This document shows positions 2-64,000 of a stretch of DNA of 64,000 nucleotides, piece by piece. Numbering within the stretch: position 1 is the first letter of the stretch; every line of letters begins with the position of its first letter. The stretch comes from Alphaproteobacteria bacterium (lineage in GTDB: Bacteria; Pseudomonadota; Alphaproteobacteria; Rs-D84): contig JAGCYJ010000012.1 in the NCBI GenBank assembly GCA_017960855.1, forward strand, positions 5,434 through 69,433, given 5' to 3'. Made by a program: the position numbers and the translations under genes. Below the pieces are notes generated by a model that did no database searches, was not told where the DNA came from, and worked only from the letters and a program-made list of their open reading frames with translations.

Positions 2-2125
2 GTAAAGTCCGATTGTAATGCGTATGAAAACAGTTTGAAACAGCAGAAAAATGCCAGCCAGACCAAGTTGGCTACCGCTGAACGTGCGTTGCGTGATGCG
101 GCGTTGGAACAATTGCGGGCGGCAAACAAATATGATTTGGGTCAATGTACAATTGAATTTAAAAAGTGTATGCAGACGACCGGCGGTTGTGGTGATGACT
201 TCGCTGCGTGTGCATCTGTTGCCGCATCTGATAACACCAATGTGAATAAAAGCACAACTAACAAAGCGAAAAAATATTCAATCAAGGGTTCTGCAACAAC
301 AATTGAAATATCTGCATCAACATATGATACATTGTTGGCTAAAAAACCGTTGTGCGAAACTGTCACGAAACAGTGCCAAAGTGTTGCGGATCAAGTTTGG
401 GGAACTTTCTTGAAGGAAGTTGCACCGGCGGTTAAATCGGCGGAACTTATTGCCGAAGATAATATGCGCCAAGATTGCATCGGCAATATTTCAGCGTGTT
501 TCCAACGCGCATGTCGTGATAATATTGACCCCAGTGATCCCGACGGTTCGTATGATTTATGTTTGACTCGTCCAGAAACAATGTTGAGTGTGTGTAAGAT
601 TCCACTTAACGCATGTGGTATTGATGCGTCATCACGTTCCAAGGCGGAAAAATCACAGATTTGGGATTTTGTAGTTGCGCGTCTTGCGTCTATGCGTGTT
701 GATTCATGTACCCGCGAAGTAAAAGCATGTTTGCAATCTGAAGATCGTTGCGGTTCGGATTATTCACAATGTATCGGGTTGGATACAGATACCATTATGC
801 GTATGTGCCCGTATGAAAAATTGGTTGGGTGTCAAATGGTTTATGGTGAAACCGAAATTCGTGGTGAAAAAGTTTATGATGAAATTTCCACCATGGTCCA
901 AGGTGTCATGCTGAATATTGATAATACTATGTTAAGCAAGTGCCAAAATGCTGCAAACGAAGCAATGATAAAAGTTTGTGGCGACACAGAAAACTGCGAT
1001 GGTTTGGCGGTTGATAGTGGTGTTGGAACACGTTCATTCAAATATCAGATTTGCGAATACACCGCAATTAATGGAAATGATATTACGTGGGGACCAGTGT
1101 GTATGGATTCATTGGATGGCATAAGCGAATACGATTTGATGAACCCCGGAAATGGTGCAATAGGTTGGGCTGGAAAATTATCCGGAACAATGTATTGGGG
1201 CGACATTGCGTATAACTGTACAGAAGCGGAAGATGGTGTGTCAGAATGCGCATTTACAAACCAGAGAGAATATGTAGAAAAACTAAAAACCCAAGGATAT
1301 GAGATTAATGCAGAAGAAGAAAAAATAATCAGTGAACGAGTATTTGGTATGGAAATGTCGGCACTGGTAAATGCTGTTAATACGGCAATTGCTGCAATTG
1401 AATCAGACCCAACCGTGCAATACTGTATGACCGGTCGTCGTGTCCAAGGAATGAAGATTGGTGAAGAAGACAGGTCATTTGGGCAAAGTGGACGTGGTCA
1501 GGGGCGTTTCCCGAATTTGACATCACAAATGCGTCAGACGATTGCTTTATCGGCACTTAAAAACGCGCGCGAAAATTACAATAAAAGATATGATTCTGAA
1601 ATATCGCGTATGATGAAAGACCAAGTGACCGCTGCGGCGCGTGTTGATAAAAATCATGCGATTGAATTGGCACAGAATACATGTGCGGCATGGGCGGAAC
1701 AAAGTGCCTTGCCTCAATCCGAATCGCCAAAGGTTAATAACACAGGTAAATGGATTGCGTTTGGTGTTCTTGCAGCCGCGGCCGTTGTTGCAAGTATATT
1801 TACTTTTGGGGCGGCAGGAGCACCTGCTGCGGCTGCGTTGCTGGGTTTCGTGGAAACCAGTACCACCGTTGCGGCCGTTAGTGCTGGGGTTGGTGTTGCG
1901 GCAGTTGGTGCAGCAGCAGGTATTGCGGCTTCCGCTGCAACACCGGTTGGTCAGGCAAATATTGAGCAATGGAATTATAAAGAAAATGTGACAACAACGT
2001 TTGCGCCATCTACTGGTGTTTGTACCAAGGTTCGTGTTTATCAGAACTGTGCAAAGACCAAAAAGAACTATTGTAAAGAATGGGAAGAACCAAAAGAAAT
2101 TCGTGATGAAGTGACATTGTTATAA
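2..2125 (+). CDS. Cysteine-rich secreted/envelope protein, family member A (5' end outside window)
   Basis: The frame is open from nt 2, with no stop upstream of the TTG at 35. There is no signal peptide at the ORF-track start, so the N-terminus is off-window. C-x6-C-x4/6-C motifs are present (CTIEFKKCMQTTGGC, CIGNISACFQRAC, CTREVKACLQSEDRC). Ala/Gly-rich hydrophobic segments lie near the C-terminus (WIAFGVLAAAAVVASIFTFGAAGAPAAAALLGF..). It is collinear with the protein starting at 62792. Confidence 0.8.
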   Translation, partial: VKSDCNAYENSLKQQKNASQTKLATAERALRDAALEQLRAANKYDLGQCTIEFKKCMQTTGGCGDDFAACASVAASDNTNVNKSTTNKAKKYSIKGSATTIEISASTYDTLLAKKPLCETVTKQCQSVADQVWGTFLKEVAPAVKSAELIAEDNMRQDCIGNISACFQRACRDNIDPSDPDGSYDLCLTRPETMLSVCKIPLNACGIDASSRSKAEKSQIWDFVVARLASMRVDSCTREVKACLQSEDRCGSDYSQCIGLDTDTIMRMCPYEKLVGCQMVYGETEIRGEKVYDEISTMVQGVMLNIDNTMLSKCQNAANEAMIKVCGDTENCDGLAVDSGVGTRSFKYQICEYTAINGNDITWGPVCMDSLDGISEYDLMNPGNGAIGWAGKLSGTMYWGDIAYNCTEAEDGVSECAFTNQREYVEKLKTQGYEINAEEEKIISERVFGMEMSALVNAVNTAIAAIESDPTVQYCMTGRRVQGMKIGEEDRSFGQSGRGQGRFPNLTSQMRQTIALSALKNARENYNKRYDSEISRMMKDQVTAAARVDKNHAIELAQNTCAAWAEQSALPQSESPKVNNTGKWIAFGVLAAAAVVASIFTFGAAGAPAAAALLGFVETSTTVAAVSAGVGVAAVGAAAGIAASAATPVGQANIEQWNYKENVTTTFAPSTGVCTKVRVYQNCAKTKKNYCKEWEEPKEIRDEVTLL

Positions 2126-2156
2126 AAACAACCGCCCGATTGGGCGGTGTTTTTTA
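2126..2156. terminator. Bidirectional rho-independent terminator
   Basis: Stem accgccc(2131-2137), loop gatt, stem gggcggt(2142-2148). An A-run lies upstream and a T-run downstream. It sits between convergent genes. Confidence 0.8.
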
Positions 2157-3209
2157 TATCAAATCTTTCAAATCTGTGATGATAAGTATGCCGGACTTTT
2201 CCCATTGTTTACGCAAATCATCTATATCCATTATATTATCTGCGCCCAAATACAAAACCGGTTGAACTTTGTTTGCACTTGCAACATTTAACACAGATGC
2301 AATTGGTGACTTTCTAATTTTGCCGGCGGCGAACCACGATTCGTTATCTGCAACCCAAAAATCCGAATCGGTATGTGATACAATTGCAAACTTGTCAGTC
2401 ACGATTACTTCGTTGTCTGTTTTGTATGGTACAGATTTTGCATCAAGGTATTTTGCCACAACATCGTTATCATTCGTTGTTGTTTTTATATCTGTAATTT
2501 CCGTTGTTGGTTCTTCTTCGTCATAATCTTCATCGTCTTCATCAAAATTCAAATCTGTAAACACAGGCGCATCATTTATAATGTTTGATGTTTCTTCTAT
2601 GTCAAAACTTGTCGGAATTGGCATTTCTGGTTCCGGTTCTGGCTGGGGTGTCGCTGGTACGACAACAGGGGCCGCAGCAGGTTTTGTCACATTGCTTAAA
2701 TCAAAAGCGGTTGTTTGTGTGCGTGCGGTGTGTTCGCGTGCGCGCGTGTATGCAACCTTTAATTCCGCAGGCAGTAATTCCGGTATGGGTTCCGGTTTCT
2801 TTTCTGTTTCAACTACTGGTGCGGGTGCTGGTTCAGTGACGACTTCTTTCACTTCTGTTGTTGTGACAATAGTTTTTTGTGGCACAGGTTCCGGCATCGG
2901 TGGCTGAACAAATGCGTTTTTGATGATTTGTGGCACAGTAAGTTTGAAATCAAATAATGGTGCGTTTTTTCGTGCAATCATAACAGTCGTTGCAACGTAC
3001 AATGGGACCATGGCCAGAACTAAAATTCCGAATACTAAACCCGCAAAGCCATGAAGGTGTGCGTGCATTAGTTGGTGCCAACGAAGAGCCGAGAATATAT
3101 TGAAGTTGAACATATATTGCATAATGGCCCATGTGACAACAACGTACGCAATCGTCCAAAGAATGACGTACTTTTTGGAATCATAAAAATTTTTCGTCCA
3201 TACTAACAT
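2154..3209 (-). CDS. Hypothetical inner-membrane protein with Pro/Glu-rich acidic linker
   Basis: 351-aa ORF. The N-terminus has about 3 hydrophobic TM segments (ILWTIAYVVVTWAIM, GFAGLVFGILVLAMVPLYVATTVMI). A PEP/acidic low-complexity region follows, then a globular C-terminal domain with no motif I recognise. Confidence 0.7.
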   Translation of the reverse strand: MLVWTKNFYDSKKYVILWTIAYVVVTWAIMQYMFNFNIFSALRWHQLMHAHLHGFAGLVFGILVLAMVPLYVATTVMIARKNAPLFDFKLTVPQIIKNAFVQPPMPEPVPQKTIVTTTEVKEVVTEPAPAPVVETEKKPEPIPELLPAELKVAYTRAREHTARTQTTAFDLSNVTKPAAAPVVVPATPQPEPEPEMPIPTSFDIEETSNIINDAPVFTDLNFDEDDEDYDEEEPTTEITDIKTTTNDNDVVAKYLDAKSVPYKTDNEVIVTDKFAIVSHTDSDFWVADNESWFAAGKIRKSPIASVLNVASANKVQPVLYLGADNIMDIDDLRKQWEKSGILIITDLKDLI

Positions 3210-3215
3210 ACTTTT

Positions 3216-3243
3216 ATTATAGACAAGGTGTTGTTTTTGTCAA
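3216..3243 (-). promoter_or_regulatory. sigma70-type promoter TTGACA-N16-TATAAT, 6 nt upstream of the ATG at 3209 (leaderless geometry)
   Basis: The minus strand reads cattGACAaaaacaacaccttgtcTATAATaaaagtATG. The -35 is the reverse complement of 3238-3243 and the -10 is the reverse complement of 3216-3221. Confidence 0.6.
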
Positions 3244-3346: not shown

Positions 3347-5410
3347 ATGCAAAAATCAGTAAAATTGTTCGGCGGAATGTTCGCCGGTTTCAGTGTCTTG
3401 GCCGTTGTTTGTGCGGCTTTCGCAGCGGAACCAACACCGCGTGCTGCGGCGGATGTACGCGAAGTAAATCGTGCAACAGTGGCGCCTGGGCGTATGCCGT
3501 CTATGCCGATTTTAACCATAAATCCGGCTAATTTAACGACGGATACCAAGCCATCACAGCCAGATGTGGATCCGAAGCCACAGCCAAAACCAGATCCAAA
3601 ACCAGAGCCGGAACCGGAACCAGAACCACAGCCGGAATGCCCAGATGGTGGCGTGCGTAATTCTGAATATACTGTCAATAACTGTATGAATGATGTTTTG
3701 GCGTGTATCAACAATGGCGCGTTGTCGGGCGGTCTGAACGATTTGTTTAATGAAGATATGCGTAATTCCATTATGAATGGTATGGGGCTGTGCTCTATCC
3801 AGGTTGAAAAGTGTATGATGGAAGTGCGTCGTGATTGTAAACCAGTATATCGCGCAATTGCGGATGTCTGGGTTGATTTCAATTCACGTAAAGTCCAACC
3901 AGAATATTACAACTTTGTTTTACGCAGAACTGGTTTAACCCCGAACCAAGCGGAAAACACATGTCTGTTGTTGGATGTGAATACATATGGTTCTTCGTTT
4001 AATGCGGTTGCGAACAGCGGTTTAACGACGGCTGAATACAACAATCGTGTTGGTGCATACAATAATCAACAGGGTGGGGTGCTGATTAAAACTAACCCCC
4101 AGGGTGCCGAATTGAACTATGGCAACCCAGGTGTTGACGGTTCACGCGGACACTATGCGCGTTGGGATGCAACAACGGCAACATGCTATCTGCGTGTTGC
4201 AGCATATAACAAAGACCAACAGATTAAAAACAGTTGGTTGTTTGGCGCGTTGGGTAATGATGACCCTGCACAAGTATGGCGTGCAGCCGGTGATACATTC
4301 AGTTGCAACAAAGACCTGTTCGGATTTTCGTTGTTGAATGATACCAAGACAACAGCAGTTGTTGGTGTTGGTGGTGGTACACTGGCCGGTGCAGGTATCG
4401 GTGCGTTGGCGGGTCATGGTAAACGTGCATTTGATTGCGATAACAGATCTGCACTGAAATCATTGAATGAACAGTTGCGCAAAAACGTCAATATCTATTC
4501 TTTGAACAGATATTTGAAAGCAAGCGATAGAATAGGTGTTGATGATTTAACAGAACGTCAGTGCAACGCCATTGTCGATTTGTACACAAATTATCAGACA
4601 ATCATGCAGGATAAGGAACGTTGTTTCGGTCCCGCGGATTTTGCATGCAAGTTTGTAGATCTAAAAGATAATGCGGTAGATGCGACTCTTAATCAGACAT
4701 ATTGTGAAGCTTGTGTGAACGCAGGCAAAGTTAAAAAAGAAGATTGCATAAAATATTTGGAAAAAGAATTTGGTTCAGAATTATTATCTGAAGATTCTTC
4801 TACTATGATCCGTATCTCTGGGACTTCAGAAGAATGTCTGTATCGTTCGTTGCGTGACCCGGGAAATATACTTAACACAAAATTGAAATGTGAAGCATCA
4901 GATACCGGATGTCTGAAGTATGCAGAAATAGAAATAGAACTTGAAGAACTGGGTGGAATATTTGCTGGTTTGTCTGTATTAGAAGGTGAAAAATCTAATA
5001 TGGGCAAGAGTATCGCAACTGGTGCCGCGATTGGTGCAGGAACCGGTGGTTTGGCAACGGCGATTACAGCATTTGTTGAACGTAACAACATTAACTGTCG
5101 TGTTGGTGATGGTTTGAATACGGTTGCGTTTGGCAAATCCCATACCATTAATACATTGAAAGATTTCTATGTTAAATGGAACCTGCATTTGCCAGATACC
5201 GTTATACCAACGGCAACCGCGGTTGATTGTAAAACATGGAAATTGTCATGTGCAGAATATACTGATTTGAATCAATGCAAAAATGCTGCGTTGAATTACA
5301 AACCGACATTGGATGGAACAATTACACTGATTCGTTCAGCGTGTAAAGTTTCGGGCAGTGTCTGTATTGAAAATGCAGCGGTTGCAAAATCGTATGGAGC
5401 ATGTGAATAA
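3347..5410 (+). CDS. Cysteine-rich secreted/envelope protein, family member B
   Basis: I chose the ATG at 3347 (ORF track starts at 3266). It is preceded by GGGGGA and gives a signal peptide MQKSVKLFGGMFAGFSVLAVVCAAFAAEP. A PKPQPKPDPKPEPEPEPEP linker follows. C-x6-C motifs are present (CMNDVLAC, CSIQVEKCMMEVRRDC). Two glycine-zipper segments are present (AVVGVGGGTLAGAGIGALAG; IATGAAIGAGTGGLATAITAF). Confidence 0.8.
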   Translation: MQKSVKLFGGMFAGFSVLAVVCAAFAAEPTPRAAADVREVNRATVAPGRMPSMPILTINPANLTTDTKPSQPDVDPKPQPKPDPKPEPEPEPEPQPECPDGGVRNSEYTVNNCMNDVLACINNGALSGGLNDLFNEDMRNSIMNGMGLCSIQVEKCMMEVRRDCKPVYRAIADVWVDFNSRKVQPEYYNFVLRRTGLTPNQAENTCLLLDVNTYGSSFNAVANSGLTTAEYNNRVGAYNNQQGGVLIKTNPQGAELNYGNPGVDGSRGHYARWDATTATCYLRVAAYNKDQQIKNSWLFGALGNDDPAQVWRAAGDTFSCNKDLFGFSLLNDTKTTAVVGVGGGTLAGAGIGALAGHGKRAFDCDNRSALKSLNEQLRKNVNIYSLNRYLKASDRIGVDDLTERQCNAIVDLYTNYQTIMQDKERCFGPADFACKFVDLKDNAVDATLNQTYCEACVNAGKVKKEDCIKYLEKEFGSELLSEDSSTMIRISGTSEECLYRSLRDPGNILNTKLKCEASDTGCLKYAEIEIELEELGGIFAGLSVLEGEKSNMGKSIATGAAIGAGTGGLATAITAFVERNNINCRVGDGLNTVAFGKSHTINTLKDFYVKWNLHLPDTVIPTATAVDCKTWKLSCAEYTDLNQCKNAALNYKPTLDGTITLIRSACKVSGSVCIENAAVAKSYGACE

Positions 5411-6790: not shown

Positions 6791-7603
6791 ATGAAAAAAA
6801 ATCTTGCATCGTTTGTTGCATTGGTGTTGTGCATGACCGTTGGTTCGGCCATGGGTGCGGTGACTATTAAAAAAGCAGAACCAGTTAAGACCCAGCAAAC
6901 CAGCACATCTAACGCTACGGGCAGTTTGGTGCCATCGGTGCTGACTTTGGTGTCGGATGTTCAGGCACTGAATGCAAAGCAACGTGATTTAGATGCAGAA
7001 TGTACTCCGTCCAGTGCAGAAATTGAATTCGTAAATAATATGATGAAAGAGTGGGCAAAAACTGGTTCATCCACGGCAGAAGAAGCATTTAGAAAATTAA
7101 ACAGAACACGGTGTGATGGTGGTACAGGGTATGAATCTTCTGTTCGTTATGCGGCTGTTACGGATATGGGAACGGTTTGCTATGACAATTTTGCCGAATC
7201 CGATAAAGATATGGTTTGGTATCATTTCCCAAAGGCAAGCAAAGCAGTGTATTGTCCCGATGGTTCGCCGGCAAGCACTTGTGGAAAAAATCAGAAAACA
7301 GTATCTAATATTTATGAAGTATTTGATTTGATTGATTTCGGTGTTAGCGATTATAACCGTCAAGAAGCAACTATGGCAGCAAAGTTATTGGATCGCGCCG
7401 ATAGATGTTCGGATGTAAAAATTAGTAAAAAGAAAAAACAAATGTGGGGCGAATTCCTGACAACCGCCATGGGTAATGTTGGTCAAAAGACCAATACTTC
7501 GGCGATTATGCAGACGGTTGGCAATATTACCCAAAATGGTGCTAGTTTAAATGGCGGTCTGTCATCGTTGGGTTCAATCGCATCTCAATTTATGGATAAG
7601 TAA
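6791..7603 (+). CDS. Hypothetical secreted protein (Cys-containing)
   Basis: 270 aa. The signal peptide is MKKNLASFVALVLCMTVGSAMGAV. There are six mature-region Cys by hand count and a Ser/Gly/Asn-rich C-terminus. I recognise no family. Confidence 0.7.
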   Translation: MKKNLASFVALVLCMTVGSAMGAVTIKKAEPVKTQQTSTSNATGSLVPSVLTLVSDVQALNAKQRDLDAECTPSSAEIEFVNNMMKEWAKTGSSTAEEAFRKLNRTRCDGGTGYESSVRYAAVTDMGTVCYDNFAESDKDMVWYHFPKASKAVYCPDGSPASTCGKNQKTVSNIYEVFDLIDFGVSDYNRQEATMAAKLLDRADRCSDVKISKKKKQMWGEFLTTAMGNVGQKTNTSAIMQTVGNITQNGASLNGGLSSLGSIASQFMDK

Positions 7604-7683: not shown

Positions 7684-9183
7684 ATGAAAAACAAAACTTG
7701 TTCTGCAACATACTTTATTTCCAGGGCGTTGGTCTTGGTGTCGTTGGTCGCGGTTGCGGCGTGTGCGCGTGATACAGACGATATGTCTTATGATGTGTCA
7801 ACACCGACGGTTGACTATGTTGAACGTTTGGATGTTTATTCTGCGCCACATAAAGATTCCTTTTTGAATCAGTTGGCGATGAATTATCGTTCTTATGCAA
7901 TTTACAATGCGCGGACCAGTGGCTATCCAGATATGGGCGAATTGTTTGCCCAGAAAGCGGTTGCTGCGTTCTCGGGCGAATTGCCGTTCCCTGAAACTAT
8001 GGAAAATTGGCCGGTTGATGATGAACAAACCGCGTTTGAATTATATACCGCATATAACGAGTTGATGGATCAGTTAAGAAATGATGCAAGTGATTTGCAG
8101 CCAGAATTAGCGGCCGAGGTTCAGGCAAAATACGATTGCTGGTTATCTGCAACGGCCAGTGGCCAAGATGCAACTGCACGTCAATGTCGCGATCGTTTCC
8201 AAAAGGCGATGGTTGCTTTGCGTGATTGCAGGGGTGGCAAAATTATAAGCAAGGTTGAATCACAACCTGTTAAAACAGTGACAAACGAATTTGCAGTTCA
8301 AGATTATCGTCGTAGCAGTGCGGAATATTATCCAGAAACACGTAATATGCAAGCGATGAGCAATTCATCTAGATCTCGCGAAGGTGTTATTATTGTCAAT
8401 AACGTAAATGTTCCTGAAAACTTGATAAAACCAGAACCAGTACAACCAATGGTGTTTAATCAAAACATTTATGGTGGCGATAAGACGGTTACCACAAACA
8501 GAGAGGCGAAGGATTGCCAATGCGCATATCGTGTTTGCAAAACGAAACCTTGTCCGCCACAACCTGTTGTCCAAGAACCATGCAATTGTCCAAATGAAGA
8601 TTTAGTGACGCGTGCAGAATTCATTGATATGATGATGGCTATGCGTGAAGAATTGGCGGCAATCAACGCGCGTTTGGATAAGTTGCAAGCTGCAGCTGGC
8701 GAAAAGACAATGATCAAGGTGCAACAGATTCCGCTGGAACCAAAACAACATGTTATGGAAGAAGTGTTCGAAGTGCGCTTTGACTTTAACAAGGCTATAA
8801 TCAAACCAGAATATCGTGATTTGATTGAAAAGTTGGCATCGGCGACCCAAGCAAACAAGAATATTAAAGTTTCTGTGGTTGGGCACACCGATACCGCTGG
8901 CAGCAAGAGCTATAACTATGCGTTGGGTGGGCGTCGTGCGGAAGCGGTACAAAAGATGCTGATTCAATATGGTATCCCAGCCAGCCAGATAGTCGCTGTG
9001 TCAAGTGGTGAAGAAGATTTGGCGGTTCCAACACCAGACAATACGCCGAATGCAGCAAACCGCCGTGTTCGCGTGGTAAAGGAAACACACTATACCAGTG
9101 AAGAGCCGGGTGGCAATCCAATCGCGGTAGAGGTTGGCGGATATGCCAGTGGTTCTTGTGGTGAATATGGCTGTGATATGTAG
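7684..9183 (+). CDS. OmpA-family peptidoglycan-associated (lipo)protein
   Basis: 499 aa. The signal/lipobox-like sequence is LVSLVAVAAC. The C-terminal OmpA_C-like domain reads FDFNKAIIKPEY..VVGHTDTAGSKSYNYALGGRRAEAVQKML..NRRVRVV. A Cys/Pro-rich linker, CQCAYRVCKTKPCPPQPVVQEPCNCP, precedes it. Confidence 0.85.
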   Translation: MKNKTCSATYFISRALVLVSLVAVAACARDTDDMSYDVSTPTVDYVERLDVYSAPHKDSFLNQLAMNYRSYAIYNARTSGYPDMGELFAQKAVAAFSGELPFPETMENWPVDDEQTAFELYTAYNELMDQLRNDASDLQPELAAEVQAKYDCWLSATASGQDATARQCRDRFQKAMVALRDCRGGKIISKVESQPVKTVTNEFAVQDYRRSSAEYYPETRNMQAMSNSSRSREGVIIVNNVNVPENLIKPEPVQPMVFNQNIYGGDKTVTTNREAKDCQCAYRVCKTKPCPPQPVVQEPCNCPNEDLVTRAEFIDMMMAMREELAAINARLDKLQAAAGEKTMIKVQQIPLEPKQHVMEEVFEVRFDFNKAIIKPEYRDLIEKLASATQANKNIKVSVVGHTDTAGSKSYNYALGGRRAEAVQKMLIQYGIPASQIVAVSSGEEDLAVPTPDNTPNAANRRVRVVKETHYTSEEPGGNPIAVEVGGYASGSCGEYGCDM

Positions 9184-9726: not shown

Positions 9727-16390
<6,664 letters not shown>

Positions 16391-34611: not shown

Positions 34612-34664
34612 GCTAGACAGGGTTGCGAAATATATGCTAATATTAAAAGCACAGAGAGAAATTG

Positions 34665-40973: not shown

Positions 40974-41069
40974 TTTATCCCCCCTTGATATAATTATTAT
41001 GCGGAAAAACGGCGCGCCCAGACCATAGGAACCATTGCAAATTGGGCTGTTTATTTTCCCAAAATTTTG

Positions 41070-41078
41070 TGATACAAT
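41070..41078 (+). promoter_or_regulatory. Extended -10 element TGaTACAAT, 7 nt upstream of the ATG at 41086 (leaderless geometry)
   Basis: tgatacaat at 41070-41078, then gcgacac, then ATG. Confidence 0.45.
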
Positions 41079-41085
41079 GCGACAC

Positions 41086-41613
41086 ATGAAGATATCAGTT
41101 GATACGATTTATAAGTTTCATCGGGCGCGCACCGCGTGCCATATTGCGTGTGTGAATTATTTTGCGGGGTTGACCGGTCATCATTTCCCTGAACACGACA
41201 GCGATAAAAATGTTGAACCCATGCAAACGGGGTATGCGTATAAAAACTATGCTTCATATCATCCGGAATACAATTTAACCGATAAATATGTCGAACTGTT
41301 TGACAACGCGCACGCGTCGCACCACGAACACGCTTCGCATCACATAGAGTTTTATCATGGTGATGTTTCCAAGATTCCACAGATACGCCTGATTGAAATG
41401 ATTTGCGATTGGTTCAGTGCTAATTTTGAACAAGTGAATATCATACACGATTACGAATATGAAACGGTGGCGGGCTGGTTTGATGCTAAATTGTCGCACC
41501 TTGATTGGACGGCGGCGCAGTTAAAAACAATTCGTGAAACGATTAAATTGTTGGAACAAAAAGCGGACAGGGCGGAACTGCTAAAAATCTGGTCGCCAGT
41601 GAGCAAGGGGTAA
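41086..41613 (+). CDS. Hypothetical His-rich protein (possible metal-binding)
   Basis: About 175 aa. It begins MKISVDTIYKFHRARTACHIACVNYFAGLTGHHFPEHDSDKN and continues ...NAHASHHEHASHHIEFYHGD. The start was chosen from the promoter geometry. An alternative ATG lies at 41077. Confidence 0.5.
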   Translation: MKISVDTIYKFHRARTACHIACVNYFAGLTGHHFPEHDSDKNVEPMQTGYAYKNYASYHPEYNLTDKYVELFDNAHASHHEHASHHIEFYHGDVSKIPQIRLIEMICDWFSANFEQVNIIHDYEYETVAGWFDAKLSHLDWTAAQLKTIRETIKLLEQKADRAELLKIWSPVSKG

Positions 41614-43343: not shown

Positions 43344-43417
43344 TGGTTGGGGCAACTGGATTCGAACCAATACTAGCGGAGTCAGAGTCCGATGTTCTAC
43401 CATTAAACTATGCCCCA
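43344..43417 (-). tRNA. tRNA-Gln (anticodon CUG)
   Basis: Hand-folded 74-nt cloverleaf. Acceptor TGGGGCA/TGCCCCA with U1:A72. D arm GTTT-AATGGTA-GAAC. Anticodon arm TCGGA-CTCTGAC-TCCGC, with one 27:43 mismatch. T arm ATTGG-TTCGAAT-CCAGT. The 3' CCA is encoded. Confidence 0.9.
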
Positions 43418-49100: not shown

Positions 49101-50938
49101 TTGAATTGGCAATCGGTGAAGCCACGTTGGCAAACGATTTGAACATTGATGGTATGAATTACTATACCAGCGTTGTCAAAGATGGCGACAATATCGTATT
49201 CAGCGACAAGTTGATTAACGAATCTAACCTGTATAGCAAGTTGGCATGGGATGCCGGTACATATATCAAACCAAGTGTTTCGTTAGAAAATACTGGTGAT
49301 GATTATATGACGGTTGGCCAGGCGTTGACCGAACTGGATACACGTATTGCGACATTGAACGGTGATGCAAGTACTGATGGTTCTGTGTCAAAATCTATAT
49401 CGGATGCGCTGGTTGATTTGGCGGCATCTAATACATATGACACATATGGCGCGGCAGATACCGCTTTGACAGATGCCAAGGCATATGTTGATGGCAAGGG
49501 ATACCAGACAGCAAGTGATGTTGATAGCGCAATGGATGCCAAGGTTACAGCGTTGGATTTGGACAATACATATGCAGCCAAGGGTGATGTTGCAGATTCC
49601 TTTACCGCTGTTCATGGCGAAATCAACGATGCGATAAGCGCTGCGGCCGAAGATGCCACAACCAAGGCCGATGCTGCGTTGGCGGCGGCCAAGGATTATG
49701 TTGATGGCAAAGGTTATCAGACCGCAGACGATGTCACTGGTGCAATTAATAGCGCATTGGCTGGTTATACCACGACTGATGGTATGAGCACCGCAATTGA
49801 CAGTGCAATTGGTGATGCATTGGCGGATTACACTACGACGTCTGATATGACCGACGCAATCGCGACAGCCAAAGGCGAAGCAATTAGTTCAGCCAAAGAT
49901 TATACCGATGGTGCGATTGAAACAGCATTGGCGGACTACACCACAACCACTGATATGAATACAGCAATTGACAGTGCAATTGGTGATGCATTGGCGGATT
50001 ACACCACGACGTCTGATATGACCGACGCAATCGCGACAGCCAAGGGCGAAGCAATTAGTTCAGCCAAAGATTATACCGATGGTGCGATTGAAACAGCGTT
50101 GGCGGATTACACCACTACCGCTGGCATAACCACAGTGGTTAATGAAGCGGTTGAAGCTGCGTTTGGTGATGGTAGCGTTGTTGCCAATGCGGTTGATGAG
50201 AGAATCGAAGCGTCTTTGGCAGATGATGGTGCAATCAATACAGCGATAAGCGGTGCGACCAAAATGGGTACAGATGGTGACGACTCGGTATCAATGTATG
50301 CCCACTTTGACGAGGGCGCATCTGTGACGGAGGCAGCGGCAGCGTTGGATACAGCGGTCAGTGCAACCGAAAGCGATATCGCAACACTGAAGGGCGAAGA
50401 AGGTACGGCGGGTTCTGTGAAGAATACAGCCAAGGGCTATGCCGATACAGCAGAAAACAATGCCAAAACCTTTGCGACCAGTGCGGTTGATTCATTGGCG
50501 AATGGCGCAGTTGCAGATAATACAGCGGCGTTATCATTGCTGAACGATGATGCGAATACCGAAGGTTCTGTTGCATACGCGGCGGCAAATGCAGTGGCGA
50601 CAGCAAACGCATATACTGATTCCAAATTGAACGAAGTACGCGATTCTGCGGTGGCGGCATCAAATGCATACACCGACAGACGTATCGAAGATTTGGACAA
50701 GAATCTGTCAGCCGGTGTCGCGGGTGCCGTTGCGTTGTCTTCGGTCGCGGTATCTGGTGTTGAACGCGGTGAAGTATCGGTTGGTGCAGGGTATGGATAC
50801 TTCAACGGTCAATCCGCTGCGGCGTTTGGCGCAACAATGGGATTGTCGAACAGATGGTCCGTTAATGCGGGTGCTGGTATATCTAATGCAGATGTATCGT
50901 TCCGCGCCGGAACAAACTACAAATTCAAATTGTTCTAA
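46148..50938 (+). CDS. Trimeric-autotransporter-type adhesin with Pmp-like GGA/FxxN repeat passenger and YadA-like anchor
   Basis: 1596 aa with a long signal peptide (..LGLIATAPAMAE). GGA(I/V/L) and FxxN motifs recur (GGAVYS..FSDN, YGGAVYV, GGAIYV, FTGN, FSGN, GGAIWF, FVNN..GGAIHN). The stalk is Ala/Asp/Thr-rich. The C-terminus LSAGVAGAVALSSVAV...VSVGAGYGYFNGQSAAAFGATMGLSNRWSVNAGAGIS...YKFKLF matches YadA_anchor. Confidence 0.8.
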   Translation: MKQTRTTLKALTAAYRAVLRHGILCNAIALGLIATAPAMAERLILDEETTLTGQTFTGNSVTAISVDTEKWTGTPEEPVVKTNAYLWTSPTDRTLQKDTEGKYIKGDIEQYTYEVKSSIAAGDEAKGGAVYSTAALTISGGEFSDNVANGALTGQKVKDVYRKQEGWEDFVLESDNGGDKRTLDGAYGGAVYAGAGLTINNDAVFANNRSDKYGGAVYVVGNIDVDGASFTNNEGGAIYVDTGGTVAGSVKNATFTGNTGSSIYSKNAKGLNISDSTFSGNSGAKVVENRSGNLDITNSTFTNNDGGILLLGAGTTGAVSSLRGITATGNTSSSRSNMYLYGKSGKTLIEDSTFSNNTTIGNDGGVVMIVNNSDGPAVIRNSKFIENSTQGDSSATGGAVAFGNSVSYTGTGNEYTGNHAGTNGGALANTASANLITEIGATFSGNSADGDGGAIWFNTGNNYSLVASIVDSSFVNNTANGQGGAIHNAHNKGETKKTTLNLIAKDSDVMFSGNIADGEANDIYNASTLNLVAAEGRTISLGGGIDGDAGTININKDISYDYYEENDGTFTRKNASVTSPNGTVEIFGALKNQTVDLGAGELHLNNTDLTGSTVTVASGATLNSIDNLINDYSSNITLADGALVKGDIDYTAGLADTYSADSGANITYKLANALNLSGVQYGSKEIAITNTGATVNADVNFAWFNGDTGLTLTSGGNGTGTVLVSGVAGGINAAVDATDETVQEITYSANAASETFDGADNVIQNADFTITGNGNDTDSNKIVFENDMIVDGQSTLSLQDINLENTDDEAITVQQGGSMYLTDARVGVDLNILGTLVSDPTYYDARVVNSGTASFTGDVFEDGSSLTNSATVNLNNVEFKSGSSLIGNAGNTLNLVGTGNIFNGSSTGNNVVLASGANYTGTLYDGVVDARNGGIDTITGSVSGGNLYVDANLTSGEVDTFGGTSGATLKGIKLANAGYGTEDKVELAIGEATLANDLNIDGMNYYTSVVKDGDNIVFSDKLINESNLYSKLAWDAGTYIKPSVSLENTGDDYMTVGQALTELDTRIATLNGDASTDGSVSKSISDALVDLAASNTYDTYGAADTALTDAKAYVDGKGYQTASDVDSAMDAKVTALDLDNTYAAKGDVADSFTAVHGEINDAISAAAEDATTKADAALAAAKDYVDGKGYQTADDVTGAINSALAGYTTTDGMSTAIDSAIGDALADYTTTSDMTDAIATAKGEAISSAKDYTDGAIETALADYTTTTDMNTAIDSAIGDALADYTTTSDMTDAIATAKGEAISSAKDYTDGAIETALADYTTTAGITTVVNEAVEAAFGDGSVVANAVDERIEASLADDGAINTAISGATKMGTDGDDSVSMYAHFDEGASVTEAAAALDTAVSATESDIATLKGEEGTAGSVKNTAKGYADTAENNAKTFATSAVDSLANGAVADNTAALSLLNDDANTEGSVAYAAANAVATANAYTDSKLNEVRDSAVAASNAYTDRRIEDLDKNLSAGVAGAVALSSVAVSGVERGEVSVGAGYGYFNGQSAAAFGATMGLSNRWSVNAGAGISNADVSFRAGTNYKFKLF
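49790..50131 (+). repeat. Near-perfect 171-nt (57-aa) tandem duplication inside the adhesin stalk
   Basis: The unit TAIDSAIGDALADYTTTSDMTDAIATAKGEAISSAKDYTDGAIETALADYTTT occurs twice. The copies start at about 49790 and 49961, with only a few nucleotide differences. Confidence 0.85.
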
Positions 50939-58809: not shown

Positions 58810-58814
58810 ACTCT

Positions 58815-59492
58815 TTATTGCGGTATTTGTCCTGTGCCGTGAACGTTGGCATACATGCTGTTGAATATGGCATCGGCATCTTCTTGGGTTGCTGGATATG
58901 AAGTATAACCCATTTCATAATTTGCGCCATTCAAAACAATCAATGTTGGTGTTTCACCAGCGCATTGGATGTAATAACGTGCCGGATCATAATATTTACC
59001 ATAACATTTACCATTTCCAACCGCCACATAGCCAGCATCAGCCAATGTTTGGCAATCTGGTTGTGTACCATATGTGATTTCACCGTTTTCAATTACTTCG
59101 TCAACTTGGTCCAAAATACCAGAACACCAAACACGAACCATCTGACCATTTACAGATGCCATTGAACCGTCGGTTGAGGTTTTGCGGACACCAAAACAAT
59201 CGCCGTTCAATACATTCAAGTCATAGTCCGAGTTTGTAAGTGTTCCACGTGATAATTCTGTGCGACCAACCGGCATAGTTTCATCAGTGTTTTTAAGCGC
59301 TTCGCCACAAATCATTTTCATACCCCAGCAATTCGCCCACGCATCCCACAGGCCTGCATCATAACCAGTGCCCATAGATGTATAGCAGGTTGCCGGATTT
59401 ACACGACAAACGGTTGGCTGTTCCCACCAGGGCGTTGCAGCAACAACATTCGTCGTTATAAAAAGTAAAGAAAGCAAAAATATTTTTTTCAT
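58815..59492 (-). CDS. Hypothetical secreted Cys/Trp/Tyr-rich protein
   Basis: 225 aa. The signal peptide is MKKIFLLSLLFITTNVVAA. There are nine Cys by hand count. It lies 100 nt downstream of family member F on the same strand. Confidence 0.7.
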   Translation of the reverse strand: MKKIFLLSLLFITTNVVAATPWWEQPTVCRVNPATCYTSMGTGYDAGLWDAWANCWGMKMICGEALKNTDETMPVGRTELSRGTLTNSDYDLNVLNGDCFGVRKTSTDGSMASVNGQMVRVWCSGILDQVDEVIENGEITYGTQPDCQTLADAGYVAVGNGKCYGKYYDPARYYIQCAGETPTLIVLNGANYEMGYTSYPATQEDADAIFNSMYANVHGTGQIPQ

Positions 59493-59593: not shown

Positions 59594-62299
59594 TTAACCG
59601 CCACTACCAGAATCGCCGCCGCCAGAATCGCCACCACCACTGGAACCACCGCCTGTTCCGCTGTTCGCTACGCATGCATCATTTTGTTGGCTATAACCAT
59701 CATTACATGTGCAAACGCCGTTAGATTTAGTTGCGTTGGTGAAACATTGACATGTGCCAGAATCACATGTTCCTGCACCACAATCAGAATTGGTGGTACA
59801 CTCGGTCGTTTCGCCTGTGTAATATAAGGCGACGGTTGCAGGGTCGGCACAATATCCCCATTTTGTATTAGCACCCGTTTCATTATAGAATTGAGAGAAC
59901 AGTTGAATACCTGTATCGCGTTCGGTGTTTGACGTCCATGGCGACGATACCCAATAACCCCCAACTCTTTCACATTCAGTTTTTAATACAGATGCCATAG
60001 ATGCCTTGACTAAATCCAGTGTGGCATTGACATCTTGTAATAATGTCGTTTTTAACTCGTTCCACTTTGTTCCACTATCTGGCGTGTTTGAACGAAGTAT
60101 TTCAATATCGCTTGGACGCAAGCACGCCTGGACGGCATATCTGACAAGTTTTTGGTACAAACTGCCGGAATAATCACCGCATGGTGGTTCATTATCAAAT
60201 TCTACATTTGTTGGATCTTCGTCATAGTTTTCACCAGGTTGCGGACATCCCTTGGTCGGCGAACATTGTACACAACGATTTCCTGGTTGTGCCAAATCTG
60301 GATTCGCGTTTAATTGATATTCAAATATGATTTTGCCACACGCATCTACCATATAATAATATTTAAAATCACATGTCTTATATCTTGTCACGCACATAGA
60401 AGTAGATGAGTGCGATGATGAAGAACATGGTATAGTAGATTGTTCGCCACTATCGCCTTCGTCGGCCCTGGTGTAAATAGCGGTCGCACTGGCAGTGCGT
60501 GACATGGGCTGGTTTTCAATAGCTGTTGTAGTATCACATACGCCCCATTTGTTCGCATGTCTCTGCTCGCCAGGTGCATACACACGACACGCATAAGGAT
60601 AAGAGTGCAGGGAATCGCTGCTGGGGACAGCGCACAAATCACGCGCATATTCTTGTAAGGTTGCGAAACAATTCTGGGCGATTTTTTGAGTTGTGATGTC
60701 TGCCATTGTGGTCAGTAATTCTTGCATACCATCTGTGCCACCGCCGTACAGGTTGCTGCACGCTGCTAATTTTTCGATACATAATTCTTCGGACAATTCT
60801 AAACGAGAGCCCAACAATAACTGTTCTTTGACGTTGCTAAAATCTTTTAATGAATTGCTTTGCATATCATAGCACTGGTTGACAACATCCAAACATTCGT
60901 TTTTGACGTCACGAATTTTTACTTGTTGACTTTGATAAATCTCTATAACCGCCTGGCGCACGAATTCATCCCATACTTCGTCGGCTAAATCGCGACAAGT
61001 ATCCAAACTATCTTCGGCAAACATACGTTTGCGATTTAATTCCAAAATCAGTGTGCGGTTGGTGTCGTTCTTTAATATGTCGCCAGACAAGGATAATGTG
61101 CTGCCCAATTGGTAGAAACTGGATGTGTATATTGGTTCGCCAGTTGTTTTGTTCAAATACAAACCACTGGTATCCAAACAATGAACATAACCCGAACCGC
61201 ATGCTGCCTCTGCGGTAACGTCTTTACGAACCTTGGCAATACATTCGTTGATAGAAGAAGAGTTGTGCGCATCGTAATTTTCCAGTCGTGCCGCATTCAT
61301 TTCGCGTTCTGTTTCACGGATGGACGCATTCGCAGATAATTTCTTTTTATCCAAAGATGCCAAAATCAAGGCACAATCGTTTTCAATGTACATGCTGTAC
61401 GCGGAAACAACCATGTTCAACAAAGATTTAGAAGAACAACGGTCGGCAACCAAATTGACGCATTGGCTGTGTACCGCATTGTATAATGTTTCGCCGGTCA
61501 GATTGGAAATGTTCAGACCCGATGTTAAATCGGTTGTTGCCCAAATAGCATTGATGTCACCAGCGATATCTAGTTGTCCCGCCGTTGATAATGACTTTGA
61601 TTTTGTGGAGGATAACACCGCGCTTATACCAGCCAGTTGCGCCATAGATTCCGATTTGTCTTTGATAAAGGACGCTACCATTTCGCCTTCACTGGCATTC
61701 TGCATTGCGTGTACTTCCGCCGCGGTTTTTGGAATTGCCTCTATATTTAAATCTTTGAAATCTTGTAATTGGTCGGCGGTTTGGTTTAGTGCACGCTGTT
61801 TGCTTTTGATATCATACAAACGCGACGAACAAACGCAGCGACGATAAGTTTCATCTTGTGCCGCACAGAATTGATCCATACATGTGAAGTACGCATCGCG
61901 ACATGTGTTATATCCTGTGCCAAACGTCTTGGAATCATTGGTTGTCGGCAGAAGGGATGCGCGGGTTGTTTTTGTGGTTGCGGTGCGTGCCCGTGTGGTA
62001 CTGGTTGCGGTGCGCGCAGTGGTGTTCTTGTTAGAACGTGTGGTTGCGGTGCGCGAAGTATTGGTTGCAGTACGCGCAACGGTTGGACGCGTTGCGGTGG
62101 CTTGTTTGATGTCGCGAACCCGCACAGTTTGTGGTGCGCTGGTGCGCGAAACGGTATTTACTTGTTTTGTTGTGGTGCGCGCATTTGAAACGTTTTGGTT
62201 CGCCGCCCCCCGCGAAATTGTTGATGCGTCGCGAACCGCGGCATACGAAACACCGATGCCGATAAAGCACGCAAAAACAACAGGTAATACCTTTCTCAT
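59594..62299 (-). CDS. Cysteine-rich secreted/envelope protein, family member F
   Basis: 901 aa. The signal peptide is MRKVLPVVFACFIGIGVSYA. An Arg/Thr-rich tract follows. CRDAYFTCMDQFCAAQDETYRRCVCS and many C-x6-C motifs are present. The C-terminus has an EGF-like CQCFTNATKSNGVCTCNDGYSQQNDAC and a GGSSGGGDSGGGDSGSGG tail. Confidence 0.85.
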   Translation of the reverse strand: MRKVLPVVFACFIGIGVSYAAVRDASTISRGAANQNVSNARTTTKQVNTVSRTSAPQTVRVRDIKQATATRPTVARTATNTSRTATTRSNKNTTARTATSTTRARTATTKTTRASLLPTTNDSKTFGTGYNTCRDAYFTCMDQFCAAQDETYRRCVCSSRLYDIKSKQRALNQTADQLQDFKDLNIEAIPKTAAEVHAMQNASEGEMVASFIKDKSESMAQLAGISAVLSSTKSKSLSTAGQLDIAGDINAIWATTDLTSGLNISNLTGETLYNAVHSQCVNLVADRCSSKSLLNMVVSAYSMYIENDCALILASLDKKKLSANASIRETEREMNAARLENYDAHNSSSINECIAKVRKDVTAEAACGSGYVHCLDTSGLYLNKTTGEPIYTSSFYQLGSTLSLSGDILKNDTNRTLILELNRKRMFAEDSLDTCRDLADEVWDEFVRQAVIEIYQSQQVKIRDVKNECLDVVNQCYDMQSNSLKDFSNVKEQLLLGSRLELSEELCIEKLAACSNLYGGGTDGMQELLTTMADITTQKIAQNCFATLQEYARDLCAVPSSDSLHSYPYACRVYAPGEQRHANKWGVCDTTTAIENQPMSRTASATAIYTRADEGDSGEQSTIPCSSSSHSSTSMCVTRYKTCDFKYYYMVDACGKIIFEYQLNANPDLAQPGNRCVQCSPTKGCPQPGENYDEDPTNVEFDNEPPCGDYSGSLYQKLVRYAVQACLRPSDIEILRSNTPDSGTKWNELKTTLLQDVNATLDLVKASMASVLKTECERVGGYWVSSPWTSNTERDTGIQLFSQFYNETGANTKWGYCADPATVALYYTGETTECTTNSDCGAGTCDSGTCQCFTNATKSNGVCTCNDGYSQQNDACVANSGTGGGSSGGGDSGGGDSGSGG

Positions 62300-62364
62300 C
62301 CTTTCTATGAAATTATGTTAGCAAAAAAAATTATTTTCGGGCAAGGGGTATTTAACAAAAAACA

Positions 62365-62396
62365 AATAAAAAATCCCGTCGTTTGACGGGAAAAAA
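62365..62396 (-). terminator. Rho-independent terminator of infA
   Basis: cccgtc-gttt-gacggg. On the minus strand it is followed by attttttatt. Confidence 0.75.
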
Positions 62397-62397
62397 C

Positions 62398-62646
62398 TTA
62401 CTGATTTGGTTGGTCTGGTGTCGCACGATTGCGTTCAACAAAAGTGATGCGACCTTTGTCCAAGTCATACGGTGTCATTTCAACACGAACATGCTCGCCA
62501 ATGTTGACCCAAATGCGTGCCTTGCGCATTTTTCCGCAAACAGTTGCCAAAATTTCGTGTCCGTTTTCCAGTTTTACCCGAAACATAGTGTTCGGCAATT
62601 TGTCTTCTACGACACCACTAAAAACAATTACATCATCTTTTGCCAT
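62398..62646 (-). CDS. infA: Translation initiation factor IF-1
   Basis: [69 protein letters not shown] is canonical S1-fold IF-1. There is a C-terminal extension of about 10 aa. Confidence 0.95.
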
Positions 62647-62791
62647 ATTTATCCCTTGGATTTTTCTTTAGTTTTTTTGTTGTCTGTAATGATATTGCGC
62701 ACCAAGAAAAAATGCAAGTTGTTTTTAATATGCCTTGCACATAGGTCTTTTATCTGATAAAATATATGCTGTAAATTGTAGGATGGAATAA

Positions 62792-64000
62792 ATGAAAATA
62801 CATGTTATTGCATTGCTGTTGTGTATGGTGCCATATGTTGCATCATCTGCAACTGAACGTGACGAAAACGCCCGTATTGGTGTCAATCGTGTGTCTATGG
62901 CTGGGGTACGTGGTATTCCAAACATGACCGTCAATTTAAAGAAGACGACGACAACCACGAAGACAAATACCAGCACATCTGGCGGTGGAAATAATAATGG
63001 CGGTGGTCAGTCGGATAATGGTGGCAATAATAACGGCGGTGGTAATAACGGTGGTGGCGACAACAACGGCGGTGGAAACGATTCAGGGCAAGATAACAAC
63101 GGAAATTGCCGTGACGCATATCGCGCCTGTATGGATGAATTCTGTCTGTTGGATGAATCCGAAGGGTATCGTTGCGCTTGTTCAGATAATATAAATAAGT
63201 CAAAAGATTTAATCCAAGAAATTCAAAAAATCCAATCCGAAGCTGATAAATTGTATACCGAAGGTGTCGAACGCGAACAACTGGGGGCCAAGGTGACGCT
63301 GGTGTTCGGTCAATCAGAAGCGGCGAAAAAATCATCGCGTGCATCGGGTTTAAGTTTCTCGGAATGGTTAAACAGCGGCAGTTCAACTGATGACGAAAGT
63401 TTGGGTGCGGATTCCGATATTGGTGATAATTTGTTTGCCATGGCTTCTAATTATTGTGCATACACATTGGATTCATGCAAAGACAAGGCTGAAATGGAAG
63501 AGGCACTGTATTCACGCCAGGTAGTTGCAGATTGTAAATCTTTTGAATCTTATTTAGCAGACCAAAAACGTAATGCCGAAGCAAACAAACGTACCGCCGA
63601 AGCCGCGGTGCGCAAGGCGCGTTTGGAAATGTTGGACACAACAAACAAGTATAATCGTGGCGAATGCTTGTTGGCGTATCGTTCCTGTATTGCGGACAAG
63701 GGTGGTTGCGGTGTCAATTTTGAAAACTGTTTAGATGTTGATTTGTTGGGGCGTCGTGCAAATGCGTGCGAAAATGTTTTGGATCAATGTATGGCTGTTC
63801 GTTCCTATGTTTTGGAAGATTGGAATGCCGAAGCGGCCAGTATTTTGGTTGAAGCGTCCAAGTATGCTGATAAATATGCACGTCAAACGTGTTTGGCACG
63901 TATCCAGGCGTGTTTGGAAGATAACTGCTCAACTGCAACAAACAGCGCGTGCTTGACCAATGTTAATGTTGCTGCGGGAATCTGCACTGTTATTACAGAA
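62792..64000 (+). CDS. Cysteine-rich secreted/envelope protein, family member G (3' end outside window)
   Basis: It is not in the ORF track because it runs off the window, so I translated it by hand. ATG at 62792 after aggatgg. The signal peptide is MKIHVIALLLCMVPYVASSA. A Gly/Asn-rich tract follows. Then come CRDAYRACMDEFCLLDESEGYRCACS and CLLAYRSCIADKGGCGVNFENC. 403 codons are open to nt 64000. Confidence 0.8.
   Translation, partial: MKIHVIALLLCMVPYVASSATERDENARIGVNRVSMAGVRGIPNMTVNLKKTTTTTKTNTSTSGGGNNNGGGQSDNGGNNNGGGNNGGGDNNGGGNDSGQDNNGNCRDAYRACMDEFCLLDESEGYRCACSDNINKSKDLIQEIQKIQSEADKLYTEGVEREQLGAKVTLVFGQSEAAKKSSRASGLSFSEWLNSGSSTDDESLGADSDIGDNLFAMASNYCAYTLDSCKDKAEMEEALYSRQVVADCKSFESYLADQKRNAEANKRTAEAAVRKARLEMLDTTNKYNRGECLLAYRSCIADKGGCGVNFENCLDVDLLGRRANACENVLDQCMAVRSYVLEDWNAEAASILVEASKYADKYARQTCLARIQACLEDNCSTATNSACLTNVNVAAGICTVITE

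Follow-up and report, generated by a model that had tools for sequence, protein, structure and literature searches.

The DNA analysed here, referred to below as the window, is a 64,000-nucleotide stretch of a 43% G+C bacterial chromosome from an uncultured gut alphaproteobacterium of the Candidatus Enterousia/order Rs-D84 group. Seven open reading frames (ORFs) in this window, labelled A to G, encode proteins rich in cysteine (Cys), and an earlier note made from the sequence had described them as seven paralogs of one family lying at three loci. All seven ORFs were recovered at the coordinates and on the strands listed in Table 1, with A cut by the start of the window and G by its end. Their lengths sum to 16.9 kb, in line with the figure of about 17 kb given in that note, and the peptides and motif examples quoted there are all present verbatim. 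The window is dense in housekeeping genes, and those encoding enolase, a PBP1-type transglycosylase/transpeptidase, signal peptidase I (LepB), RNase III, LptB/LptC, ClpP/ClpX, PGK and RNase HII separate the three loci, as had been observed; NrdR and very large autotransporter-type proteins are also encoded. The comparative analysis resolves the Cys-rich ORFs and their conserved partners into a set composed of a superfamily sharing a twin-Cx6C domain (A, F, G and a fourth paralog, H, together with C and D), the non-homologous proteins B, E and S, and two conserved neighbours.

The sample of relatives comprised 80 genome loci centred on F and 56 metagenome loci centred on E, from which a local database of 10,543 ORFs was compiled for iterative domain searches; 48 relative loci or species had enough flanking sequence to judge the arrangement of H-G relative to F. 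These comparisons identified A, F and G, together with H, as true full paralogs. The collinear similarity that had been noticed by eye between A and G and between F and G is significant in composition-corrected BLASTP searches (E-values of 2e-14 and 8e-11, respectively, and of 2e-7 for A and F), and hhalign groups A, F, G and H in one family with probabilities of 98-100% (99.5-100% for A-H, A-G and A-F). The four proteins share a core of ~400 residues that opens with an invariant signature, C-x6-C-MD-x-FC-x9-C-x-C. A hidden Markov model (HMM) of this signature module matches F at an E-value of 9e-21 and G at 3e-15, and the full-length F-family HMM matches only G and A. Beyond the shared core, F has a linker rich in Thr and Arg as well as a variable Cys-rich tail, and G has a linker rich in Gly and Asn. 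Since H, a protein of ~830 amino acids (aa), is encoded directly upstream of G in 48/48 relatives, its gene is expected just beyond the end of the window.

A further level of relationship is defined by a six-Cys domain of ~45 residues, C-x6-C-x4/6-C-G-x2-[FY]-x2-C-x(1-3)-D-x-D-x6-9-C-x5-6-C, exemplified by CTREVKACLQSEDRCGSDYSQCIGLDTDTIMRMCPYEKLVGC in A, CSSEITACVVGNAKCTSRYSACAEDSDFNRYFSECSVAATGC in C, CDSMLRECMIQKCGSNFGKCVADTDTTFFDKMDTCRRTTNC in D and CLLAYRSCIADKGGCGVNFENCLDVDLLGRRANACENVLDQC in G. If membership is defined as detection with a profile derived from a different family of the group, the window encodes two copies of this twin-Cx6C domain in A, two in D, one in C, one in the visible part of G and a degenerate one in F. 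An HMM built from the C-family copies alone matches A at an E-value of 7.6e-7, and one built from the D copies alone matches A at 1.3e-4 and, weakly, the second D copy and C. Jackhmmer searches started from C, D or A converge on the same set, in which A, H, G and D each have two copies and C has one; the search from A adds the degenerate copy in F, for a total of 512 instances. The sole hit outside the labelled families was a fragment with G as its best match, and hence no unrelated ORF was recruited from the 10,543, nor were the Cys-rich proteins B and E recruited in any of these runs. The hhalign probabilities for A-D (73%), A-C (65%), D-C (55%) and H-C (48%) all fall on one short region. 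Based on the cross-family HMM matches and the convergence of the jackhmmer searches, the twin-Cx6C domain was accepted as a homologous domain common to five of the seven proteins (A, C, D, F and G). Pairwise BLASTP between C and D is not significant after composition correction (E-value of 2.5), and the full-length C and D HMMs match only C and only D, respectively. On the profile evidence, C and D have one domain in common with A, G and F and not collinear full-length homology.

The N-terminal region of C also contains a pattern, C-x7-C-LDSAC-x11-C-x2-C, that resembles by eye the signature of the A/H/G/F family. The signature-module HMM misses the C protein of the window and matches only divergent C homologues, at the same position, with E-values of 0.004-0.5, so that a correspondence between the two is suggestive rather than demonstrated. 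Among 1.84 billion representative proteins the C profile matched only 66, all of them C-like bar one (P0426), an unrelated repetitive protein that was discarded as a false positive. The possibility that C is a lipoprotein, raised by the Cys that follows its signal peptide, was rejected because the spacing from the AxA site to that residue varies among homologues (AAC, AATTC, AATKC). D, for its part, has a TFxC and glycine-zipper segment and a variable C-terminal extension; its match to CarboxypepD_reg (PF13620) reaches 27.5 bits against a cut-off of 32.3, and some D orthologs carry a precomputed match to this domain.

B and E fall outside the superfamily. B shows no detectable homology to A, F or G (hhalign probability <4% outside the signal-peptide region), and neither B nor E exceeds 7% in hhalign against any other member, bar signal-peptide and low-complexity matches, or has pairwise BLASTP similarity to one. 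A segment of B was nevertheless found to recur in D: D orthologs are its best non-B matches in phmmer (E-values of 5e-4 to 0.02), and jackhmmer recruits all 33 of them. The iterative search also drew in two antisense ORFs, and the B-D signal must therefore be partly low-complexity, but the link was kept because the single-pass phmmer matches include the TFxC…FG part. A similar element occurs in E, in which the motif AYLxTFxC[DE]YG contains a lone conserved Cys (residue 1370, about 26356-26358), and D and B carry their TFxC beside their glycine zippers. In addition, a short R-M-P-[ST]-M motif located ~25-35 residues past the signal-peptide cleavage site is present in D, in some of the G orthologs and in B (15/17), and may constitute a sorting or anchoring signal.

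Protein E has a composite architecture, with two CarboxypepD_reg domains (39 bits against the cut-off of 32.3), a glycine-zipper core, further CxC repeats and a C-terminal OmpA domain (PF00691; residues 1712-1797, 31.3 bits against a cut-off of 27.2) that PDB OmpA chains also match with E-values of 0.002-0.06. Its repeat, of ~50 residues and beta-type, follows the pattern C-x4-C-x2-GY…C and is present in at least 12 copies. The glycine-zipper core is the only part of E found in all orthologs, one of which (in locus L001) is 465 aa long and lacks the OmpA domain.

The spacing of Cys residues separates E from the other proteins as well. C-x6-C, reported earlier to recur throughout, is the commonest gap between consecutive Cys in the six proteins other than E, each having 5-9 occurrences against ~1 expected (shuffle p <= 0.005 in each; 5 against 0.96 in B), whereas E has it no more often than chance would give (7 occurrences, 6.1 expected, p = 0.41) and its dominant gaps are x4, x1 and x3. 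Enrichment in C-x6-C thus extends to six of the seven proteins. The proposal of a single family of seven paralogs, in turn, is upheld for A, F and G, reduces to the sharing of a domain for C and D, and fails for B and E; pairwise alignments remain significant after composition correction for A-G, F-G and A-F, but not for C-D or for any comparison involving B or E.

All these proteins are predicted to be exported and, with the exception of E and its beta-type repeats, to be mostly helical. Sec-type N-terminal signal peptides with AxA-type sites were identified in B to G and in the orthologs of A, the full-length versions of which span 978-983 aa, and hydrophobic, GxxxG-rich glycine-zipper segments are present in A, B, D, E and G. 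An AlphaFold2 model of C based on a 46-sequence alignment contains helices only, with an overall predicted local distance difference test (pLDDT) score of 75 and, onwards of about residue 150, block means of 83-94 (83-89 over residues ~150-190). Most of its Cys residues lie on helices or at helix ends, and C149 and C156 occupy positions i and i+7 of the helix spanning residues 146-157. The model of F is likewise mostly helical, in agreement with the helical character that had been suggested for these proteins.

The behaviour of Cys residues across orthologs provides further insight into their role. C has 20 invariant Cys residues, F has 29, D 15 and B 18, and nine occur in S, a 225-aa exported protein encoded directly downstream of F. 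When mature Cys counts were compared across orthologs, parity was found to be even in C (119/121 orthologs; 20 Cys), H (69/74; mostly 36), G (70/75; mostly 36), A (38) and B (14/14; 18-26), and odd in F (78/81; 27-47), D (118/121; 15-35), S (9 Cys in 79/80) and E (33/38; 1-43, with 107 in the window copy). Parity is hence maintained while totals vary, which implies that Cys are gained and lost in twos, as predicted for disulfide pairs and not for metal sites with three or four ligands. The proteins accordingly combine a signal peptide with conserved parity at varying totals, as exported disulfide-bonded proteins do, and the Cys of the set probably form disulfide pairs, as had been proposed. 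The families with odd counts correspond to two adjacent gene pairs, D and E on the one hand and F and S on the other, suggesting that one intermolecular disulfide could join the members of each pair; homodimers or a free thiol would account equally well for the odd Cys of D, E, F and S. A DsbA/DsbG-like gene with a thioredoxin fold was detected 9 kb from C in one relative.

The organization of these genes is conserved among relatives. H-G and F are divergently oriented in 48/48 loci, and 47/48 carry S downstream of F. S, which was absent from the initial list of members, follows F in 79/80 F-centred loci; it probably belongs to this system too and could be a disulfide partner of F. C, D and E form an operon in relatives, sometimes with a small additional Cys-rich gene. 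The gene for a 1139-aa ankyrin/outer-membrane protein (OMP)-like product is divergent from and adjoins C in 22/23 related loci, and the one for a Cys-free membrane protein adjoins B in 14/16. C-D-E is followed by B-A in 8/18 loci, and no more than 10 kb separate F from C, D or E in 7-11 of 48 loci, a proximity for which the chance expectation in a 0.9-Mb genome is ~2%. Individual relatives present contiguous arrangements of C-D-E-H-G-F (L098), H-G-F-S-B-A (L079) and H-G-F-B-A without S (L037). Because the three blocks are often contiguous in relatives, their separation into three loci in the window seems secondary, and the approximately eleven genes look to behave as one functionally linked, conserved set that is split in this genome. 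Furthermore, each of the seven genes defines a separate ortholog group that is fixed across the species sampled, and none resembles a recent duplicate, indicating that these are old, fixed genes and not recent expansions. The earlier view of a lineage-specific expansion, as opposed to a single island, is therefore borne out in its lineage specificity, but is at odds with the frequent adjacency of C-D-E, B-A and H-G/F-S in relatives.

The nearest database proteins are all annotated as hypothetical proteins and derive from uncultured gut and rumen Alphaproteobacteria, including several Candidatus Enterousia, a genus within the uncultured order Rs-D84 (PMC12306168); no cultured representatives were found among the matching records. 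Genomes of this lineage are mostly smaller than 1 Mb, encode a fermentative metabolism without a tricarboxylic acid cycle or respiratory chains, and contain many unexplained membrane proteins for which a role in interactions has been proposed (PMC12306168). In a collection of 5.8 billion proteins, F had more than 1226 homologues, C had 670 and the D core 868; core identities for F and C were ~50-55% across a genus-level spread. In a collection of species-representative genomes, 272/326 pattern matches to F were confirmed as orthologs by tblastn. The gene family is confined to the order Rs-D84. Two records titled Bacteroides fragilis and Muribaculaceae (L018, CAVGNU010000011.1, and L072, OZ246409.1) carry an F ortholog, and their gene content looks like that of mislabelled Rs-D84 bins; OZ246409.1 is a 716-kb "chromosome".

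Searches against known families support the novelty of the set. Scans of all seven proteins with Pfam and NCBIfam returned only OmpA (E) and CarboxypepD_reg (E and D) plus noise, leaving the Cys-rich parts without a Pfam or NCBIfam family, and the profiles built here retrieve no annotated family; retrieval of a well-annotated one, named in the earlier note as a refuting result, was not observed. Sequence searches of PDB that used F, E and the C profile as queries detected nothing but OmpA, and Foldseek found no match with an E-value below 1 for the C model against PDB and BFVD or for the F model against PDB. No description of the family was found in literature searches on Cys-rich proteins of the lineage or on CX6C. 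The data hence define a protein superfamily and a gene set not described before, in a gut lineage that is widespread but poorly known.

Several known systems nonetheless present similarities with this set. The chlamydial OmcB and OmcA proteins (with MOMP) are likewise Sec-exported, Cys-dense envelope proteins of a small genome with putative disulfide cross-linking, and PMP-like autotransporters are also encoded nearby in the window (Chlam_PMP repeat match, 46148-50938). OmcB is beta-rich, whereas the proteins described here are predicted to be helical; neither Pfam nor NCBIfam relates them to the chlamydial families, and peptidoglycan synthesis genes are present here. The parallel, being one of analogy, hints at a possible function only. 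CHCH (twin-Cx9C) proteins of the mitochondrial intermembrane space resemble the twin-Cx6C domain in bearing paired C-xN-C motifs on consecutive helices and in their oxidising export compartment, but the domain described here has x6 spacing instead of x9/x3, six Cys and a CG-x2-[FY]-x2-C-x-D-x-D core, lies within bacterial proteins of 300-1000 aa, forms a hairpin that is only putative, and gives no Pfam match to CHCH (PF06747) at an E-value <= 0.1. The Sel1-like Hcp proteins of Helicobacter are also exported, helical, repeat-built bacterial proteins with regular Cys pairs that staple helix pairs, but no Sel1/SLR match (PF08238) was obtained for any of the seven proteins, which differ in motif and spacing and belong to a multi-gene set of far larger proteins. 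Given these failed profile tests, the set was not assigned to the CHCH, Sel1/Hcp or chlamydial families. The Myxococcus Cys-rich repeat (TIGR04201) reaches 16.6 bits in the F tail, below its cut-off of 25. The OmpA domain of E scores above the Pfam threshold, but is found in only some E orthologs, and the GxxxG-rich segments recall those of SlyB/Pcp and of the Rickettsia 17-kDa antigen, from which these proteins differ in having neither lipoboxes nor matches to a glycine-zipper family.

We tentatively favour, at a little less than an even chance, an interpretation of these genes as a conserved, lineage-specific system of Sec-exported, disulfide-stapled helical envelope proteins, with predicted covalent D-E and F-S pairs. 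Under this model, intramolecular disulfides would staple neighbouring helices, and the single unpaired Cys of D, E, F and S would bond intermolecularly within the D-E and F-S pairs. The glycine-zipper and hydrophobic segments of A, B, D, E and G could tether the proteins to the membrane, and the OmpA domain of E, where present, to peptidoglycan, resulting in a disulfide-stabilised envelope scaffold or complex. Several observations weigh against this interpretation. The link of C and D to A, G and F is a short Cys-rich domain with hhalign support of only 55-73%; the F model is poor (pLDDT 56); the glycine-zipper segments match no Pfam or NCBIfam family; the D-E and F-S disulfides are predicted solely from parity and adjacency; and bacteria of this lineage are anaerobes that lack a respiratory chain, which makes the re-oxidation of a periplasmic oxidase puzzling (PMC12306168). 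A bolder formulation appears possible but doubtful. In it, the approximately eleven co-conserved genes (X3 / C-D-E / B-tm-A / H-G / F-S) would build a previously unknown covalent, disulfide-linked multi-protein envelope structure, with D-E and F-S heterodimers formed through their single unpaired Cys and the twin-Cx6C domain as a new fold, that might serve as a lineage-specific scaffold or attachment apparatus underlying a gut lifestyle with a reduced genome.

The main competing explanation, unlikely though far from negligible, is that these are surface adhesins or proteins mediating interactions with a host or partner, displaying stapled helical domains on low-complexity stalks for attachment in the gut to mucus, host cells or microbes. 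In its favour, long linkers rich in Thr, Ser, Arg, Gly, Asn and Pro follow the signal peptides, and D, E and F vary between species in their C-terminal Cys-rich repeats and Ig-like CarboxypepD_reg domains; the window is crowded with autotransporter-type adhesins, and the reduced genomes of the lineage encode the many membrane proteins proposed to act in interactions (PMC12306168). The Pfam and NCBIfam scans, however, identified no recognisable outer-membrane translocation domain in these proteins, their cores are strongly conserved (~50-55% identity), unlike those of fast-evolving adhesins, and OmpA domains such as that of E bind peptidoglycan in the periplasm. The original proposal of seven paralogs of a single family, generated by lineage-specific duplication at three independent loci, agrees with the true paralogy of A, F and G, the domain that C and D have in common with them and the enrichment of C-x6-C in six of the seven proteins, yet it is improbable as a whole. 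The profile tests already refute it for E, which has no detectable similarity and a different repeat; B lacks the twin-Cx6C domain, each gene forms a separate conserved ortholog group, and the loci adjoin in many relatives.

Only slight weight can be given to a reading of the Cys as metal or cluster ligands, or as redox-active thiols, in a periplasmic metal-handling or electron-transfer system. The dense, invariant Cys, including one CxxC in C (C48/C51), would fit such a role, and oxidative folding is not guaranteed in an anaerobic host (PMC12306168), but the Pfam and NCBIfam scans found neither a haem-binding CxxCH nor a known Fe-S- or Zn-binding family, Cys numbers change in steps of two instead of three or four with conserved parity, inter-helix staples typically show the i/i+7 spacing seen on the helices, and Sec-exported proteins cross the membrane unfolded. 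A compositional artefact of Cys richness is very improbable: short Cys motifs can match by chance and glycine-zipper segments did yield two antisense false positives in one search, but the composition-corrected BLAST and HMMER E-values are significant, which already refutes this explanation for A, F and G, the Cys-richest protein, E, was never recruited, the shuffle tests are significant, and the only reversed decoy below an E-value of 1 in the module search scored 0.012, against 9e-21 for F and 3e-15 for G.

Table 1. Coordinates of the Cys-rich genes, their domains and motifs, and their conserved neighbours in the window.
Feature	Position	Strand	Description	Detection
A	2-2125	+	C-terminal 707 aa of a ~980-aa exported Cys-rich helical protein; N-terminus before window start	
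A, first twin-Cx6C copy	143-277	+	Four-Cys form, residues 48-92	jackhmmer, domain iE 6e-10 to 9e-9
A, second twin-Cx6C copy	695-856	+	Six-Cys form, residues 232-285	C-family HMM, E = 7.6e-7; D-family HMM, 1.3e-4; jackhmmer
A, C-terminal hydrophobic segments	1742-1951	+	Ala/Gly-rich, putative membrane anchor, residues 581-650	Kyte-Doolittle scan
Cys-free membrane protein	2154-3209	-	351 aa, between A and B; N-terminal transmembrane helices, long acidic/Pro-rich linker	
B	3347-5410	+	687-aa exported protein; 18 conserved Cys (even); two glycine-zipper segments	
B, R-M-P-[ST]-M	about 3479-3502		Residues ~45-52	
B, segment also found in D	4217-4486	+	AGxTFxC…FG…glycine zipper…FDC	phmmer, jackhmmer
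E	24865-30465	-	1866-aa exported protein, 107 Cys	
E, conserved core	25966-26598	-	Motif AYLxTFxC[DE]YG…ELPGGN	Ortholog alignment; 56 metagenome loci
D	30472-32850	-	792-aa exported protein; 15 conserved Cys (odd); two twin-Cx6C domains	
D, twin-Cx6C domain 2	31981-32115	-	Residues 246-290	jackhmmer from C, iE 1.3e-10
D, twin-Cx6C domain 1	32200-32331	-	Residues 174-217	jackhmmer from C, iE 2e-7
D, R-M-P-[ST]-M	about 32680-32694		Residues ~53-57	
C	32866-33726	-	286-aa exported all-helical protein, 20 invariant Cys; first gene of C-D-E operon	
C, twin-Cx6C six-Cys domain	33148-33285	-	Residues 148-193	jackhmmer seed
Ankyrin/OMP-like protein	34662-38081	+	1139-aa exported protein; Pfam Ank_4, glycine-rich hydrophobic segment, OMP-like C-terminus; divergent from C	
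S	58815-59492	-	225-aa exported protein, 9 invariant Cys (odd); directly downstream of F	
F	59594-62299	-	901-aa exported A/H/G/F-family protein; 29 conserved Cys (odd)	
F, degenerate twin-Cx6C domain	61163-61252	-	Residues 350-379	jackhmmer from A, iE 9e-7
F, N-terminal signature module	61829-61903	-	C-x6-C-MDQFC-x9-C-x-C, residues 133-157	Invariant ortholog-alignment columns
G	62792-64000	+	First 403 aa of a ~730-820-aa exported paralog; gene cut by window end	
G, signature module	63107-63202	+	Residues 106-137	
G, twin-Cx6C domain	63662-63796	+	Residues 291-335	jackhmmer, iE 1.5e-12

The set described here represents roughly 2% of the genome of bacteria that, with genomes below 1 Mb, are widespread in gut and rumen and the cell biology of which is barely known. 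The twin-Cx6C domain and its co-conserved partners provide a handle for annotating hundreds of hypothetical proteins, and the disulfide-linked D-E and F-S pairs constitute a concrete prediction. If the disulfide assignment holds, the set would also exemplify strong dependence on oxidative protein folding in an anaerobic organism devoid of a respiratory chain.

Regarding the two conserved neighbours, the Cys-free membrane protein has no Pfam or NCBIfam match, and the ankyrin/OMP-like protein divergent from C holds a degenerate subtilase-like stretch that was recognised by eye. Two other exported proteins contain several Cys residues, a 270-aa protein with 7 Cys and a Gly/Ser/Asn-rich tail (6791-7603, +) and a 499-aa OmpA-family protein with 13 Cys (7684-9183, +), and the envelope proteome as a whole seems to be Cys-rich. 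The window also encodes two giant, almost Cys-free surface proteins, a 1796-aa one with a passenger/barrel-like organization and no Pfam match (11000-16390, +), and a 1596-aa protein of the trimeric autotransporter type (46148-50938, +) that has a YadA anchor and a beta-helix and weakly matches the Chlamydia PMP repeat. The sole RNA gene detected in the 64 kb with ARAGORN and Rfam encodes tRNA-Gln(CTG) (43344-43417, -). Lastly, a gene for a choloylglycine hydrolase-family (bile-salt hydrolase) protein (39894-41087, -), with homologues in 29 related loci, fits a gut lifestyle.

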